This document shows positions 28,806-57,663 of a stretch of DNA of 64,000 bases, in pieces. Source of the stretch: Escherichia phage ECO07P1; sequence record OP172784; one strand, written 5' to 3'. The position numbers and the translations under genes were made by a program. The notes beneath the pieces are model-generated. The model was not told the DNA's origin. It was given only the letters and a program-made list of their open reading frames with translations, and made no database searches. How positions within the stretch are numbered: position 1 is the stretch's first letter; each line of letters opens with the position of its first letter.

Positions 28806-28878
28806 TGGGAATTAGCCAAGTTGGTAAGGCACTGGATTTTGATTCCAGGATGCAAAGGTTCGAGTCCTTTATTCCCAG
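28806..28878 (+). tRNA. tRNA-Gln (anticodon UUG)
   Basis: Cloverleaf by eye: acceptor TGGGAAT/ATTCCCA, anticodon loop TTTTGAT, T-arm GGTTCGAGTCC. Confidence 0.85.
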
Positions 28879-28879
28879 C

Positions 28880-28966
28880 GCGAGAATGGTCAAATTGGTA
28901 AAGGCACAGCACTTAAAATGCTGCGGAATGATTTCCTTGTGGGTTCGAGTCCCACTTCTCGCACCA
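28880..28966 (+). tRNA. tRNA-Leu (anticodon UAA), long variable arm, CCA encoded
   Basis: Acceptor GCGAGAA/TTCTCGC, anticodon loop CTTAAAA, T-arm GGTTCGAGTCC, 3' ACCA. Confidence 0.85.
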
Positions 28967-28971
28967 AATTT

Positions 28972-29045
<74 letters not shown>

Positions 29046-29055
29046 ATTTAATTTA

Positions 29056-29129
29056 CTCCGTGTAGCTCAGTTTGGTAGAGCGTCTGCTTTGGGAGCAGAA
29101 TGTCGCAGGTTCAAATCCTGCCGCGGAGA
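29056..29129 (+). tRNA. tRNA-Pro (anticodon UGG)
   Basis: Acceptor CTCCGTG/CGCGGAG, anticodon loop CTTTGGG, T-arm GGTTCAAATCC. Confidence 0.85.
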
Positions 29130-29131
29130 CT

Positions 29132-29221
29132 GGAGGCGTGGCAGAGTGGTTTAATGCACCGGTCTTGAAAACCGGCAGTCGCTCCGGCGACTCATAGGTT
29201 CAAATCCTATCGCCTCCGCCA
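29132..29221 (+). tRNA. tRNA-Ser (anticodon UGA), long variable arm
   Basis: Acceptor GGAGGCG/CGCCTCC, anticodon loop CTTGAAA, T-arm GGTTCAAATCC, 3' GCCA. Confidence 0.85.
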
Positions 29222-29226
29222 GTTTT

Positions 29227-29302
29227 GCTGATTTAGCTTAGTAGGTAGAGCAACTCACTTGTAATGAGAAGGTCGGCGGTTCGATTCCGTCAATCAGCAC
29301 CA
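29227..29302 (+). tRNA. tRNA-Thr (anticodon UGU)
   Basis: Acceptor GCTGATT/AATCAGC, anticodon loop CTTGTAA, T-arm GGTTCGATTCC, 3' ACCA. Confidence 0.85.
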
Positions 29303-29303
29303 A

Positions 29304-29378
29304 GGCCCTGTAGCTGGAAGGTTCAAGCAAGCGACTCATAATCGCCAGATGGTGGTTCAATTCCACCCAGGGCCACCA
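29304..29378 (+). tRNA. tRNA with CAU anticodon (Ile2 lysidine-type by T4 analogy, or Met)
   Basis: Acceptor GGCCCTG/CAGGGCC, anticodon loop TCATAAT, T-arm GGTTCAATTCC, 3' ACCA. Confidence 0.75.
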
Positions 29379-29391
29379 AATTAAGAATTAA

Positions 29392-29478
29392 GGGGAGTTA
29401 TCCCGTAGAGGTAGCGGTGTGGACTGTAAATCCATTGTCATTGCGACTCGGGTGGTTCGACTCCATCACTCCCCACCA
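29392..29478 (+). tRNA. tRNA-Tyr (anticodon GUA), class II long variable arm
   Basis: Acceptor GGGGAGT/ACTCCCC, anticodon stem GTGGA/TCCAT with loop CTGTAAA, T-arm GGTGGTTCGACTCCATC, 3' ACCA. Confidence 0.75.
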
Positions 29479-29482
29479 ATTT

Positions 29483-29557
29483 GGATGTGTAGCTCAATGG
29501 CAGAGCGATCGCCTGTTAAGCGATTGGTTATAGGTTCGAATCCTATCACGTCCGCCA
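29483..29557 (+). tRNA. tRNA-Asn (anticodon GUU)
   Basis: Acceptor GGATGTG/CACGTCC, anticodon loop CTGTTAA, T-arm GGTTCGAATCC, 3' GCCA. Confidence 0.8.
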
Positions 29558-29561
29558 AATC

Positions 29562-29637
29562 CGAGGCATAGCTCAGAAGGAAGAGCAAGGACCTTCTAAG
29601 TCCTAGGTCGTAGGTTCGATCCCTACTGCCTCGACCA
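29562..29637 (+). tRNA. tRNA-Arg (anticodon UCU)
   Basis: Acceptor CGAGGCA/TGCCTCG, anticodon loop CTTCTAA, T-arm GGTTCGATCCC, 3' ACCA. Confidence 0.85.
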
Positions 29638-35954: not shown

Positions 35955-36213
35955 ATGAAAATGTATCAAGAATTTATCGCTGAAGCAGATGCCAAAGGCC
36001 CCAAATTTAAAGTTAAAGCTTTCGTTGGTGATGCGGAAGACTTTGGCTCATTAAAACGTAATGGGTATTTTTCCTAGGCGGCGATGGTAGAGAAATAAAC
36101 ACCTATGCAAAACGTAGTGAATTGCTTATGTTGCTGCAAGTCCTAAAGTAGATGTTGACGATATTGGATACGATTTTAACAACTTCGGAATTATTTCTGG
36201 CGGTGAAGCTTAA
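35955..36213 (+). pseudogene. decayed internal-protein gene remnant
   Basis: Starts MKMYQEFIAEADAKGP (CTS-like), stops after 40 codons; remaining sequence has short ORFs in other frames. Confidence 0.45.
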
Positions 36214-36216
36214 ACG

Positions 36217-36246
36217 GTTTACGCTTAAGTATTAATATGGTATAAT
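36217..36246 (+). promoter_or_regulatory. T4-type early promoter (ipIII-like)
   Basis: GTTTAC-N18-TATAAT. Confidence 0.6.
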
Positions 36247-36276
36247 TACTCTATCAAAACAAACAAGGAAACAAAA

Positions 36277-36855
36277 ATGAAAACGTATAAAGAATTTATT
36301 GCTGAAGCTTCTGTGGAAAAGGCCAAAGGCATTAATAAGGACGAGTGGAACTATCGTGGTGGAAACGGCTTTGACCCTAAAACTGCTCCACTTGAACGAT
36401 ATCTAGCCACAAAAGCTTCTGACTTTAAAGCTTTCGCTTGGGAAGGACTTCGCTGGCGTACCGATCTAAATATTGAAGTTGATGGGCTTAAATTTGGCCA
36501 TATTCAAGATGTTGTTGCTAGTAACTTGGATGCAGCTTTTGTTAAAGCTGACGGTGACCTTCGTCGCTGGAATTTAAAACTATTCTCTAAACAGAAAGGC
36601 CCGGTGTTTGTGCCTAAAGCTGGTAAATGGGTTATTGATAATAAATTAGCTAAGGCTGTCAACTACGCTGGTCTTGAATTCGCCAAGCACAAATCATCAT
36701 GGAAAGGTCTGGATGCAATGGCTTTCCGTAAAGAATTTGCTGATGTTATGGCTAAAGGCGGCTTTAAGGCAGAAATAGATACCTCTAAAGGTACGTTTAA
36801 GGACGCTAATGTTCAGTACGCTTATGCCGTTGCTAACGCAGCCCGTGGTAATTAA
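36277..36855 (+). CDS. ipIII: internal protein III-like
   Basis: 192 aa; MKTYKEFIAE-A CTS; length and N-terminus match T4 IPIII from memory. Confidence 0.7.
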   Translation: MKTYKEFIAEASVEKAKGINKDEWNYRGGNGFDPKTAPLERYLATKASDFKAFAWEGLRWRTDLNIEVDGLKFGHIQDVVASNLDAAFVKADGDLRRWNLKLFSKQKGPVFVPKAGKWVIDNKLAKAVNYAGLEFAKHKSSWKGLDAMAFRKEFADVMAKGGFKAEIDTSKGTFKDANVQYAYAVANAARGN

Positions 36856-36896
36856 TAAGGCCGATACTTAGGCTTATTTACATTTAAAGGAAACAT

Positions 36897-37199
36897 ATGA
36901 AAACATATCAAGAATTTATTACTGAAGCTCGAGTGAGTGCAGGTAAATTAGAATCCGCTATAAATAAAAAGGCCCATTCATTTCATGATTTGTCCGATAA
37001 AGACCGTAAGAAACTTATAAGCCTTTATATTGACAAAGAGCGTATTCTCGCTCTTCCTGGCGCTAATGAAGGTAAACAGGCCAAGCCTTTGAATGCTGTC
37101 GAAAAGAAAATTGATAACTTTGCTTCTAAATTCGGTATGTCTATGGATGACCTTCAGCAAGCGGCTATCGAAGCAGCTAAAGTAATTAAAGGTAAATAA
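36897..37199 (+). CDS. ipII: internal protein II-like
   Basis: 100 aa; MKTYQEFITE-A CTS; length matches T4 IPII. Confidence 0.65.
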   Translation: MKTYQEFITEARVSAGKLESAINKKAHSFHDLSDKDRKKLISLYIDKERILALPGANEGKQAKPLNAVEKKIDNFASKFGMSMDDLQQAAIEAAKVIKGK

Positions 37200-37342
37200 C
37201 ATGGGAACAACCTGGACCTCATGATTCTATGAGGGATTCCCGCCAACCTGTAATAAGGGTCGAGCCCAAGTGCGGTAATGGGTAAACACAGAAATGGACA
37301 ATTCATGCGCCACGGAATGGCCCAACCTAAAAGAGAAACTAA

Positions 37343-37882
37343 ATGAGAACATTTTTAACTGGTCCTTATCTATCCCTGATGAATGCTTTTACACACCATT
37401 CTGATGCTAGAGTAGAAGAAATTTGTAAGAATGATTATGTCCCACCATTTGAAGACTTACTCAAACAGTATTGCACACTTCGACTAGATGGTGGACGTCA
37501 ATCCGGTAAATCAACTGCAGTAACTAATTTTGCCGCTAATTGGTTGTATGATGGCGGAACAGTTATTGTTCTTTCTAATACTTCAGCTTACGCTAAAATT
37601 TCTGCAAATAACATTAAAAAGGAATTTTCGCGTTATTCTAATGATGATATACGTTTTCGTTTATTTACTGATTCTGTCCGTAGTTTTATCGGTAATAAAG
37701 GAAGCAAGTTCAGAGGTTTATCGCTTTCGCGGATTTTGTATATAATCGATGAGCCTGTTAAATCTCCTGATATGGATAAAATTTACGATATTCATATTGA
37801 AACTGTGCACCACTGTTGCAATAGTAAATGCTGCATTGGTGGTATTATTCGTCCACAGTTTTTCATAATCGGAATGCAATGA
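37343..37882 (+). CDS. small P-loop NTPase-like protein
   Basis: Walker A-like DGGRQSGKST and Walker B-like ILYIIDEP; C-terminal Cys cluster. Confidence 0.5.
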   Translation: MRTFLTGPYLSLMNAFTHHSDARVEEICKNDYVPPFEDLLKQYCTLRLDGGRQSGKSTAVTNFAANWLYDGGTVIVLSNTSAYAKISANNIKKEFSRYSNDDIRFRLFTDSVRSFIGNKGSKFRGLSLSRILYIIDEPVKSPDMDKIYDIHIETVHHCCNSKCCIGGIIRPQFFIIGMQ

Positions 37883-38061
37883 TGACAGACACGCAACTTT
37901 TCGAATATCTTTATTTTTCGCCAAAAACTGTTAAAAATAAATTGGTGAATCATTTTGAAATTTTGGCAAATAACAACGTCTTGAGCGAATTTTATCCTAA
38001 GCAATACAAATTACAAAAAAGGCGTATTCAAAGGATGCAGAGTTTTGTGCACTGCTCCTAA
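37879..38061 (+). CDS. hypothetical small protein
   Basis: ATGATGA overlap with upstream stop; about 60 aa. Confidence 0.4.
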   Translation: MMTDTQLFEYLYFSPKTVKNKLVNHFEILANNNVLSEFYPKQYKLQKRRIQRMQSFVHCS

Positions 38062-38217
38062 TGCAAGATTAATGAATAAAATTCCATATTTTACCATGGA
38101 ATTTATTGATGGGCCTTTTAAAGGACTAATCACGCAGAGTTTAATGGCATATGATTCTGAGCCATTTTTAATTAAAGAACAATCTTGGATAAATTTATTT
38201 TCTAATTGAGAGGTTAT

Positions 38218-38580
38218 ATGAAAGCATATCAAATTCTTGAAGGCACGCATAAAGGTACTATTTATTTTGAAGATGGTATTCAAGCACGAATTATTGTCTC
38301 TAAAACTTTTAAAGAGGACTCTTTTGTAGACCCAGAAATTTTCTATGGTTTGCATGCCCGTGAAATTGAAATTGAAACACAACCTACAGTTAAAATTGAA
38401 GGTGGTCAACACCTGAACGTTAACGTTCTGCGTCGCGAAACTCTGGAAGATGCAGTTAAGCATCCGGAAAAATATCCGCAGCTAACCATCCGTGTATCCG
38501 GTTATGCAGTTCGCTTTAACTCTCTGACTCCGGAACAGCAGCGCGACGTTATCGCTCGTACCTTTACTGAGAGTCTGTAA
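38218..38580 (+). CDS. autonomous glycyl radical cofactor (GrcA/YfiD-like)
   Basis: C-terminal half carries the glycyl-radical signature [25 protein letters not shown]; 3' half uses host-like codons (CTG, CGT, CCG); GAGAGG Shine-Dalgarno. Confidence 0.85.
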
Positions 38581-54908: not shown

Positions 54909-55382
54909 ATGTTATTGACTGGCAAATTGTACAAAGAAGAAAAACAAAAATTTTATGATGCACAAAACGGTAAATGCTTAATTTGCCAACGAGAACTAAA
55001 TCCTGATGTTCAAGCTAATCACCTTGACCATGACCATGAATTAAATGGACCGAAAGCTGGAAAGGTGCGTGGATTGCTCTGTAATCTTTGCAATGCTGCG
55101 GAAGGTCAAATGAAGCATAAATTTAATCGTTCTGGCTTAAAGGGACAAGGTGTTGATTATCTTGAATGGTTAGAAAATTTACTTACTTATTTAAAATCCG
55201 ATTACACCCAAAATAATATTCACCCTAACTTTGTTGGAGATAAATCAAAGGAATTTTCTCGTTTAGGAAAAGAGGAAATGATGGCTGAGATGCTTCAAAG
55301 AGGATTTGAATATAATGAATCTGACACTAAAACACAATTAATAGCTTCATTTAAGAAGCAGCTTAGAAAGAGTTTAAAATGA
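54909..55382 (+). CDS. 49: endonuclease VII (Holliday junction resolvase)
   Basis: 157 aa; MLLTGKLYKEEKQKFYDAQNGKCLICQRELNPDVQANHLDHDHELNGPKAGKVRGLLC matches T4 gp49. Confidence 0.92.
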   Translation: MLLTGKLYKEEKQKFYDAQNGKCLICQRELNPDVQANHLDHDHELNGPKAGKVRGLLCNLCNAAEGQMKHKFNRSGLKGQGVDYLEWLENLLTYLKSDYTQNNIHPNFVGDKSKEFSRLGKEEMMAEMLQRGFEYNESDTKTQLIASFKKQLRKSLK

Positions 55383-57196
55383 CAATTGAAAAAGAAATTG
55401 AAGGATTGATTCATAAAACTAATAAAGACCTTTTAAACGAGAATGCTAATAAAGATTCTCGTGTTTTTCCAACTCAACGGGACCTTATGGCTGGTATTGT
55501 GTCTAAACACATTGCCAAAAATATGGTCCCGTCTTTTATTATGAAAGCGCATGAAAGCGGAATTATTCATTTCCATGATATTGATTATTCCCCTGCTCTT
55601 CCATTTACTAATTGCTGTTTAGTAGATTTAAAAGGAATGCTTGAGAACGGATTTAAGCTCGGTAATGCACAGATTGAAACTCCTAAATCAATCGGTGTTG
55701 CTACTGCAATTATGGCACAAATTACTGCACAGGTTGCTTCCCATCAATACGGTGGAACGACTTTTGCGAATGTAGACAAAGTACTTTCTCCTTATGTTAA
55801 ACGCACATATGCGAAACATATTGAGGACGCAGAAAAATGGCAAGTCGCTGATGCGTTGAATTATGCCCAATCTAAAACAGAAAAAGACGTATACGATGCA
55901 TTCCAAGCTTATGAATATGAAGTAAATACTCTCTTTAGTTCAAACGGACAAACGCCTTTTGTAACAATTACATTTGGTACGGGAACTGACTGGACTGAAC
56001 GAATGATTCAGAAAGCAATTCTGAAAAATCGTATTAAAGGTCTTGGTCGTGACGGGATAACTCCTATTTTCCCTAAACTTGTTATGTTCGTTGAAGAAGG
56101 TGTTAATCTTTATAAAGACGATCCGAACTATGATATTAAGCAGCTTGCTCTAGAGTGTGCAAGCAAAAGAATGTATCCTGACATCATTTCGGCTAAGAAC
56201 AATAAAGCTATCACTGGTTCATCTATTCCTGTTTCTCCAATGGGTTGTCGTAGTTTCTTGGGCGTATGGAAAGATTCGACTGGTAATGAAATTCTTGATG
56301 GACGTAATAATCTTGGTGTTGTAACACTGAATCTTCCTCGCATTGCGCTAGATTCTTATATTGGAACACAGTTCAATGAACAGAAATTTGTTGAGCTATT
56401 TAATGAACGAATGGATCTGTGTTTTGAAGCCTTGATGTGTAGAATTAGTTCCTTAAAAGGAGTTAAAGCAACTGTAGCTCCTATTCTTTACCAAGAAGGT
56501 GCATTCGGGGTTCGTCTTAAACCTGATGACGATATAATTGAGTTATTTAAAAACGGTAGAAGTTCAGTGTCCCTAGGATACATTGGTATTCACGAATTGA
56601 ATATTCTTGTCGGTCGTGATATTGGACAAGAAATTTTAACTAAAATGAATACTCGTCTTAAGCAGTGGACTGAAAGAACCGGATTTGCTTTTAGTTTGTA
56701 TTCTACTCCTGCTGAAAACCTGTGCTATCGCTTCTGTAAACTTGATACCGAAAAATATGGAAGTGTAAAAGATGTTACTGATAAAGGCTGGTACACTAAC
56801 AGTTTCCACGTTTCAGTAGAAGAAAATATTACTCCATTTGAAAAGATTTCTCGCGAAGCCCCATATCATTTCATTGCAACAGGCGGTCACATTTCTTATG
56901 TTGAACTTCCTGATATGAAAAATAACTTAAAAGGCCTTGAGGCTGTATGGGATTATGCTGCACAACATTTAGATTATTTTGGTGTTAATATGCCAGTAGA
57001 TAAATGTTTTACGTGTGGAAGTACCCATGAAATGACTCCTACTGAAAACGGATTTGTTTGTTCTATTTGTGGAGAAACTGATCCTAAAAAGATGAACACC
57101 ATAAGAAGAACATGTGGCTATTTAGGAAATCCGAACGAGCGCGGATTTAATCTTGGCAAAAATAAAGAAATCATGCATAGGGTTAAACACCAATGA
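55379..57196 (+). CDS. nrdD: anaerobic ribonucleoside-triphosphate reductase
   Basis: 605 aa; C-terminal glycyl-radical motif RRTCGYLGNP and Cys cluster CFTCGS...CSICG; uninterrupted ORF. Confidence 0.92.
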   Translation: MTIEKEIEGLIHKTNKDLLNENANKDSRVFPTQRDLMAGIVSKHIAKNMVPSFIMKAHESGIIHFHDIDYSPALPFTNCCLVDLKGMLENGFKLGNAQIETPKSIGVATAIMAQITAQVASHQYGGTTFANVDKVLSPYVKRTYAKHIEDAEKWQVADALNYAQSKTEKDVYDAFQAYEYEVNTLFSSNGQTPFVTITFGTGTDWTERMIQKAILKNRIKGLGRDGITPIFPKLVMFVEEGVNLYKDDPNYDIKQLALECASKRMYPDIISAKNNKAITGSSIPVSPMGCRSFLGVWKDSTGNEILDGRNNLGVVTLNLPRIALDSYIGTQFNEQKFVELFNERMDLCFEALMCRISSLKGVKATVAPILYQEGAFGVRLKPDDDIIELFKNGRSSVSLGYIGIHELNILVGRDIGQEILTKMNTRLKQWTERTGFAFSLYSTPAENLCYRFCKLDTEKYGSVKDVTDKGWYTNSFHVSVEENITPFEKISREAPYHFIATGGHISYVELPDMKNNLKGLEAVWDYAAQHLDYFGVNMPVDKCFTCGSTHEMTPTENGFVCSICGETDPKKMNTIRRTCGYLGNPNERGFNLGKNKEIMHRVKHQ

Positions 57197-57663
57197 ATTA
57201 TGATAGATTTTATCCTTGCGATTTTGTGAATGGCCCTGGATGCAGGGTCGTTCTTTTCGTTACAGGTTGTTTGCATAAATGCGAAGGGTGTTATAATAAA
57301 TCAACATGGAATGCTAGAAATGGCGTTCCATTCACTGGTAAAACACTAGAACAATTAATTGAATGTTTGAATAATGATTATATAGAAGGATTAACTATAA
57401 CTGGAGGAGACCCTCTTTATCCTGATAACCGAGATGATGTTCATTGCATTGTTCAAACGGTAAAAAATCTTTATCCGAATAAAAGCATTTGGTTGTGGAC
57501 AGGGTACAAGTTTGAAGATATTAAACAACTAGAAATGCTTAAATATGTTGATGTTATTATTGATGGGAAGTATGAGAAAAATCTTCCGACCAAAAAGCTG
57601 TGGCGAGGTTCAGATAATCAGCGACTTTGGTCAAATACCGATGGGGTGTGGAAACATGATTAA
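57193..57663 (+). CDS. nrdG: anaerobic RNR activating enzyme (radical SAM)
   Basis: 156 aa; Cys cluster CLHKCEGC; ATGA overlap with nrdD. Confidence 0.9.
   Translation: MNYDRFYPCDFVNGPGCRVVLFVTGCLHKCEGCYNKSTWNARNGVPFTGKTLEQLIECLNNDYIEGLTITGGDPLYPDNRDDVHCIVQTVKNLYPNKSIWLWTGYKFEDIKQLEMLKYVDVIIDGKYEKNLPTKKLWRGSDNQRLWSNTDGVWKHD

Follow-up and report, generated by a model that had tools for sequence, protein, structure and literature searches.

The vs.6 gene of Escherichia phage ECO07P1 (sequence record OP172784) is a mosaic within a single reading frame, its 5' half being phage-like and its 3' half almost identical to grcA of E. coli. The main reading, which we hold with high confidence, is that vs.6 encodes a phage GrcA whose 3' half has been overwritten repeatedly by host grcA through gene conversion. 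A more far-reaching view seems moderately likely: conversion from host to phage is ongoing and keeps the radical half of vs.6 in concert with the grcA allele of the main host species of a Tevenvirinae lineage, by at least two and probably many independent events that share one fixed junction. The DNA analysed, referred to here as the window, is one strand of 64,000 nucleotides, and coordinates refer to it unless gene positions are named. The vs.6 gene and its biochemistry are already known at textbook level for T4, and no new gene is discovered here.

The window is a segment of a T4-type (Tequatrovirus) genome. Its gene order, nudE-e-denV-ipII/III-...-regB-vs-tk-...-49-nrdD-nrdG-55, is that of the T4 minus strand, and the 2.6 kb around the vs.6 gene are 96-97% identical to many sequenced relatives. 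The reading frame (Table 1) starts with the ATG at 38218-38220 and ends with the TAA at 38578-38580, which overlaps the ATG of the next gene. The GAGG in front of the ATG is located directly 3' of the TGA stop (38207-38209) of the vs.7 frame. A TTG start at 38206 was considered and rejected, since the ATG at 38218 has the GAGG and agrees with the T4 annotation. Promoter and terminator scans around vs.6 returned sites no commoner than in shuffled sequence.

By sequence and position the gene is the ortholog of T4 vs.6 (Y06I), a refinement of the original prediction, which had named Y06I as a T4 homologue of YfiD. The two genes have equal length (363 nt), and 118 of the 120 amino acids are identical. 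Two residues differ (T54P and R73H in T4), and there are some synonymous differences, few in number. The same genes flank them, vs.8 and vs.7 on one side and vs.5, vs.4, vs.3 and regB on the other; vs.6 keeps its place in the denV-regB-tk early region, between vs.7 and vs.5, with flanks 87-100% identical to T4. T4 vs.6 also carries the same E. coli-identical 3' tract, and the RefSeq name of its protein is GrcA.

The protein has the size of the GrcA/YfiD family (TIGR04365, IPR011140), whose members are small stand-alone proteins (about 14 kDa) with a C-terminal glycyl-radical domain. The Pfam domain Gly_radical (PF01228) is found in residues 60-101 with 67.2 bits (cut-off 22.2). With phmmer, the E. 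coli YfiD of the NMR structure PDB 6OWR matches the phage protein with an E-value of 4.6e-42, in an alignment that begins at residue 22. Residues 61-120 also align to PflB 697-759 (E 4.8e-26), and both the PFL-type RVSGYAV loop and the C-terminal helix are present. The role of the residue equivalent to Gly95 as the glycyl-radical site is that given in PMC8683613. The NCBIfam equivalog model for GrcA, TIGR04365, aligned over residues 20-120, scores 154.6 bits, under its 170-bit cut-off, because the N-terminus of the vs.6 protein is divergent. The protein has the defining sequence features of the GrcA family except for this full-length score. E. coli GrcA/YfiD (6OWR) resembles it in the whole radical module, RVSGYAV loop included, where GrcA 68-127 corresponds to phage 61-120, and the presumed partners, PflA and PflB, are the same. 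The N-terminal regions are only distantly homologous: the phage protein is 7 residues shorter, and its N-terminal 60 residues are only about 30% identical. Another difference is that vs.6 belongs to a lytic phage, whose signals drive its expression.

Table 1. Coordinates of vs.6, its parts and related features in the window
Feature	Position	Strand	Remarks
tRNA cluster	28806-29637		10 tRNAs: Gln, Leu, Gly, Pro, Ser, Thr, Met/CAT, Tyr, Asn, Arg
Shine-Dalgarno-like GAGG	38210..38213	+	Putative, read from sequence; 4 nt 5' of the vs.6 ATG
vs.6/Y06I ortholog, phage autonomous glycyl-radical cofactor (GrcA-like)	38218..38580	+	ORF, 120 codons plus stop
5' part of vs.6	38218..38395	+	GC3 0.16; homologous to bacterial GrcA N-termini
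Core tract, host-derived, probably by conversion	38396..38570	+	174/175 identical to E. coli K-12 grcA
Gly95 codon in RVSGYAV, glycyl-radical site	38500..38502	+	Equivalent to GrcA Gly102 and PflB Gly734 in the YfiD/PFL alignment
Right-junction zone, last 10 nt	38571..38580	+	GAGTCTGTAA (Glu codon third base, AGT CTG TAA); E. coli differences cluster here
nrdD	55379-57196	+	605 aa, uninterrupted ORF; about 17 kb downstream of vs.6
nrdG, anaerobic ribonucleotide reductase activase	57193-57663	+	ORF

The two halves of vs.6 differ sharply in their relationships. From 38396 to 38580, 182 of the 185 nucleotides are identical to grcA of E. coli K-12 (98.4%), all three differences are synonymous, and residues 61-120 are identical to GrcA 68-127 without exception. 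Among 5,426 complete E. coli genomes, the best match to the tract in each genome is 95-99% identical. Upstream of 38396 the nucleotide identity to grcA is 43%, while the same part (38218-38395) is 76% identical to the gene of a CC31-like phage. With this CC31-like gene and E. coli grcA as parents, the maximum chi-squared method places a breakpoint with 64 phage-like and 5 host-like informative sites on its left and 1 phage-like and 36 host-like sites on its right (chi-squared 82, permutation p<=1e-4). In the core tract the sole private difference is a G>A change at 38484 (CTG>CTA). Positions 38571 and 38574, in the last ten nucleotides, differ from E. coli and are variable among phages; this end of the gene is probably residual phage sequence or the product of variable conversion end-points.

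Base composition changes at the same place. GC3 rises from 0.16 in the 5' part to 0.43 in the 3' part, compared with 0.45 in the same region of E. coli grcA. In the 3' part Leu is encoded by CTG five times, Pro by CCG three times and Arg by CGT or CGC only, with ATC for Ile and CAG, whereas the 5' part uses CTT/TTG, CGA/CGT, CCA/CCT, ATT (nine times) and CAA. The tract, with a G+C content of 0.486 (z=2.9), belongs to the top 0.8% of the 185-nt windows; only the tRNA cluster is higher, and the tract is the most G+C-rich coding stretch of the window. The original prediction of a phage-like 5' half and a host-like 3' half, with a GrcA/YfiD module in the C-terminal 60 or so codons and G/C-ending codons of host type, is thus borne out in identity, breakpoint and codon usage alike; codon usage is not uniform across the reading frame and nucleotide identity to host grcA is not low. 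When the whole window was compared with all E. coli genomes by megablast, there was no other chromosomal match besides the tract, and the remaining matches are tRNA-like and to plasmid records only.

E. coli grcA itself shows the relatedness expected of an enterobacterial gene. Its 3' module shares 98% identity with that of another Escherichia species; for Citrobacter, Klebsiella and Salmonella the values are 92%, 89% and 83%, and the 5' half has a similar pattern of relatedness. The phage module of 180 nt, from GGQHLN to the stop codon, is 98.3% identical to E. coli and 96.7% to another Escherichia species, and dS and dN between the phage tract and E. coli grcA are 0.069 and 0. Since E. coli grcA has a normal place in the enterobacterial identity gradient and the phage tract is closest to E. 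coli, the transfer went from host to phage. These identities point firmly to E. coli or a very close relative as the donor. The vs.6 gene is therefore a phage-host intragenic mosaic with a supported breakpoint, identified parents and a direction, the recipient lineage being represented by the CC31-like genes, which are AT-rich throughout.

The same in-frame mosaic occurs in more than 600 independently sequenced phage genomes, the T4 reference included. The original prediction of a recent capture of a host gene segment is correct in the host origin of the 3' half, but a single private event does not fit a tract found in hundreds of Tequatrovirus genomes, T4 among them, and repeated conversion is indicated. 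A second type of tract is found in the Jiaodavirus phages of Klebsiella. The grcA gene of K. pneumoniae matches 106 Klebsiella-phage records at 95% identity or more. Two Jiaodavirus genes were sampled for comparison with both hosts: in the first 150 nt of the tract their identity is 98-99% with K. pneumoniae but 87-89% with E. coli, and the window shows the reciprocal pattern. The K. pneumoniae reference here is one allele, and KP179 has a divergent tract. The left junction is identical in Tequatrovirus and Jiaodavirus, directly 5' of GAAGG(T/C)GG (E-G-G). The right junction is not fixed; within a range from about nt 338 to 363 of the gene, it lies at about 353-363 in the window, at about 338 in most Jiaodaviruses and at 348 or beyond in Nispero. 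The Klebsiella-type tract in Jiaodavirus, the left junction that it shares with Tequatrovirus and the differing right junctions are solid observations. In protein sequence, the E. coli-type and Klebsiella-type modules differ at L/E and E/K in ..ETL[E/L]DAV[K/E]H... The type of tract follows the phage lineage, not the host of isolation, as in the Yersinia phage ZN18, a Tequatrovirus with an E. coli-type tract. No Salmonella-type tract was found in phages, the best matches (84%) being E. coli-type tracts. The genes pflB and tdcE were rejected as donors: the Klebsiella-phage vs.6, the only gene with which this distance was measured, is 73-83% identical to pflB/tdcE and 96% to K. pneumoniae grcA, and the window tract shares 98.4% identity with grcA of E. 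coli.

Some side observations concern the Klebsiella sequences. The KPV15 record (Jiaodavirus) has a 1-nt deletion that frameshifts its vs.6 gene. Two PLSDB entries labelled as plasmids, CP125156.1 (5.37 Mb) and LR134122.1, are actually chromosomal sequence of K. pneumoniae and K. aerogenes, respectively, and K. aerogenes grcA is frameshifted in the LR134122.1 assembly.

The number of conversions is the point at which another history has to be weighed. A single conversion in the common ancestor of Tequatrovirus and Mosigvirus, with one more in Jiaodavirus, would account for a tract common to hundreds of related phages, the low divergence of the tract then being due to constraint or to exchange between phages. 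The module protein is almost invariant in bacteria, so that selection on it must be strong, and the window and T4 differ about as much in the tract (5/185) as in the flanks. Comparison of more distant phages argues in the other direction. The Mosigvirus ATK47, whose vs.6 gene occupies 601-963 of the sequence compared, is 97-100% identical to the window in the tract and 70-90% in the flanks, and the edges of this island of identity are also the edges of identity to E. coli. The differences number 4/185 in the tract and 22/178 in the 5' part (Fisher p=1.5e-4), and synonymous divergence between the genera is 4-fold lower in the tract, with a dS of 0.094 in the 3' half and 0.40 in the 5' half. The Jiaodaviruses show the opposite: their 5' parts differ at 2-3/178 sites and their tracts at 10-12/155, every one of the tract sites being a third codon position (p about 0.01). 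Divergent tracts in such a near-identical 5' context are what would be expected from different donor alleles.

Polymorphisms of E. coli are also seen in the phages. Gene nt 192 (A/G) and 219 (C/T) vary among the three E. coli alleles sampled, and the same bases vary among the phages. At nt 219 the window has C, as in the K-12 allele, and T4 has T, as in an alternative E. coli allele; in the core tract, a single private mutation separates the window from one extant E. coli allele, and likewise T4 from another. This comparison within Tequatrovirus covers nine phage alleles and three E. coli alleles, and the shared polymorphisms could be parallel synonymous transitions. Some of the spread of the tract may also be due to transfer from phage to phage in co-infections. 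Given such small samples, the ATK47 island, the reversed Jiaodavirus pattern and the shared polymorphisms are suggestive of repeat conversion. The variable right junctions argue the same way. In each group, more than one round of conversion seems to have affected the tract, and we regard a history of just two conversions as improbable.

Repeated conversion presupposes a resident phage gene, and the 5' half has the properties of one. When phage and bacterial N-terminal alignments are compared with hhalign, they match with 92% probability (E 5e-7, 48 columns), and BLASTP of the phage N-terminal part against GrcA gives 34% identity over 41 aa. Among phages, the dN/dS of the 5' half is 0.08-0.4, which indicates purifying selection. 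Full-length homologs are found in Karamvirus/CC31-like, Krischvirus, Pseudotevenvirus, jumbo and T5-like phages. In the Karamvirus, Krischvirus, Pseudotevenvirus and T5-like genes the 3' module is 63-84% identical to E. coli grcA, and several of the phages with unconverted homologs infect E. coli, yet their modules stay in this range. The CC31-like and T5-like genes have a low GC3 throughout, and the dS of the CC31-like gene to E. coli is about 1.2. Host-identical tracts are absent from the Karamvirus, Krischvirus, Pseudotevenvirus, Slopekvirus-like and T5-like genes, which are 63-84% identical to all bacterial grcA genes sampled. The Pseudotevenvirus and Slopekvirus-like genes have a slightly raised 3' GC3 (0.42-0.45), which could stem from old, ameliorated conversion events. 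Judged from these homologs, the ancestral state is an old, ameliorated, full-length and AT-rich phage grcA.

These data also bear on whether a host 3' fragment was fused once, in frame, to an unrelated phage ORF and then inherited vertically. Such a fusion would produce the sharp break in composition and identity at 38396, and the 5' half alone has no match in Pfam. It is nevertheless very unlikely: the 5' half is homologous to GrcA N-termini, other genera have full-length homologs with diverged modules (those of the CC31-like and T5-like phages also having a low GC3 throughout), and the Klebsiella-type tracts, the variable right ends and the island of low divergence do not fit a single fusion. 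The homologous N-terminus and the AT-rich full-length homologs elsewhere imply instead gene conversion of a resident phage gene, a better term than capture, as used in the original prediction, for a diverged GrcA N-terminus joined to a host-derived 3' half. That no transfer took place, the likeness being due to extreme constraint, convergence or host DNA contaminating the assembly, is scarcely credible even though the module protein is identical across many Enterobacterales, since the synonymous sites match E. coli (dS 0.069), enterobacteria with the same module differ by 8-24% in DNA and the other coliphage genera by 25-37%, and the same mosaic recurs in all those independently sequenced genomes.

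How the tract was acquired can be outlined under repeated conversion. In the Tequatrovirus lineage, the 3'-terminal 175-185 nt or so, which encode most of the structured radical domain, were overwritten by E. coli grcA through homologous recombination, and in Jiaodavirus the same replacement, with the same left junction, was made from Klebsiella grcA. Recombination of the T4 UvsX type could have used fragments of degraded host DNA as its substrate, and this gene may be the only phage sequence that still has usable homology to the host. In the unconverted state the exact runs in register are only 11-20 nt long, while the converted tract is 87-99% identical to enterobacterial grcA. Because of this high identity, re-conversion should be easy and the left end should be pinned at the edge of homology. 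The radical module would thus evolve in concert with the host gene, and the N-terminal half as ordinary phage sequence.

The position of the junction can be compared with the structure of the host protein. In YfiD, residues 1-60 are disordered and help the protein to bind damaged PFL and to be activated efficiently, and residues 61-127 are structured and replace PflB 693-759 (PMC8683613). The structured part begins a few residues before the conversion junction, which corresponds to GrcA residue 67/68. Y06I is activated by PFL-AE and restores oxygen-cleaved PFL, according to Wagner et al. (2001), as cited in PMC8683613. By analogy with this T4 ortholog, host PflA would install the glycyl radical on Gly95, and the structured C-terminal module would plug into host PFL that is oxygen-cleaved or inactive and restore its activity. 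T4 stops host gene expression, and a spare part encoded by the phage may keep PFL flux going during infection in a micro-aerobic, anaerobic or oxygen-fluctuating gut. This flux would supply acetyl-CoA, ATP and formate, the last possibly as the reductant for the class III NrdD of the phage. Class III ribonucleotide reductases, T4 NrdD among them, usually use formate as their reductant (PMC4493059). A functional link from vs.6 through formate to nrdD/nrdG is thus plausible. The original prediction had taken co-location with nrdD/nrdG to suggest support for anaerobic infection; the genes lie in the same arm of early genes, but about 17 kb apart and not adjacent. The two downstream genes are taken to be nrdD and nrdG from their sequences and from the T4 gene order. 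The nrdD gene of T4 has a group I intron with I-TevIII, and ECO07P1 nrdD appears to be without this intron.

Several other features of the window differ from T4 or have a distinctive form. The vs.7 gene, which encodes 109 aa in T4, is split into overlapping ORFs at 37828-38061 and 38045-38209, because one extra A is present, relative to T4, in a poly-A run (38014-38021); a pseudogene, a slippery run or an error of sequencing may lie behind the split. At 37300-37345, a 7-nt deletion and substitutions relative to T4 disrupt the first 40 or so codons of vs.8, and the vs.8 ORF of the window (37343-37882) starts at a Met equivalent to residue 41 of T4 Vs.8. Three consecutive ORFs at 35955-37199 share a near-identical N-terminus, MK(M/T)Y(Q/K)EFI(A/T)EA, which resembles the capsid-targeting leader of the T4 internal proteins (ipII/ipIII region). 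In the tRNA cluster, the tRNA-Tyr part (about 29388-29481) has a 90.5% match in an E. coli plasmid record, and a 25-kb chunk of the window is matched at 80-90% by another 257 plasmid records; these records may be phage-plasmids with T4-like tRNAs.

Intragenic recombination between host and phage is described for the cyanophage genes psbA and psbD (Sullivan et al. 2006, PMC1484495; Zeidner et al. 2005 as cited there). As in that system, vs.6 is a phage copy of a damage-prone part of a host protein, with patchy G+C content and a statistically supported exchange of segments. Unlike the cyanophage case, the vs.6 tract forms one block, whose one fixed junction falls a few residues into a structured domain, it is 98-99% identical to the allele of a present-day host species, it occurs in enterobacterial T4-like phages, and the donor species and the direction from host to phage are unambiguous. 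The literature covered on vs.6, YfiD and grcA in T4-like phages holds no account of the mosaic or of its host-matched recurrence, key older papers being outside that scope, and recurrent host-matched conversion is possibly undescribed before.

The tract has a practical side as well. As a core-gene PCR/qPCR marker for Straboviridae coliphages, grcA has been proposed (PMC12845203), and primers placed in the 3' half of vs.6 could amplify host grcA, which is 97-98% identical. For the biology of these phages, the point of interest is that the only stretch of the window that is still base-for-base host-like encodes the module that docks into a host enzyme and is activated by a host activase, and that the allele of the matching host species is carried in two phage genera. 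The tract thus makes three questions tractable: the frequency of recombination between lytic phages and host DNA, the role of selection, as opposed to residual homology alone, in keeping the spare part host-matched, and the use of a short tract to tell which host a phage lineage has recently had. If repeated host-matched conversion is true, this tract of about 180 nt would be a natural, scorable reporter of recombination between strictly lytic, host-DNA-degrading phages and the host chromosome, and a molecular record of the recent principal host of a phage lineage.
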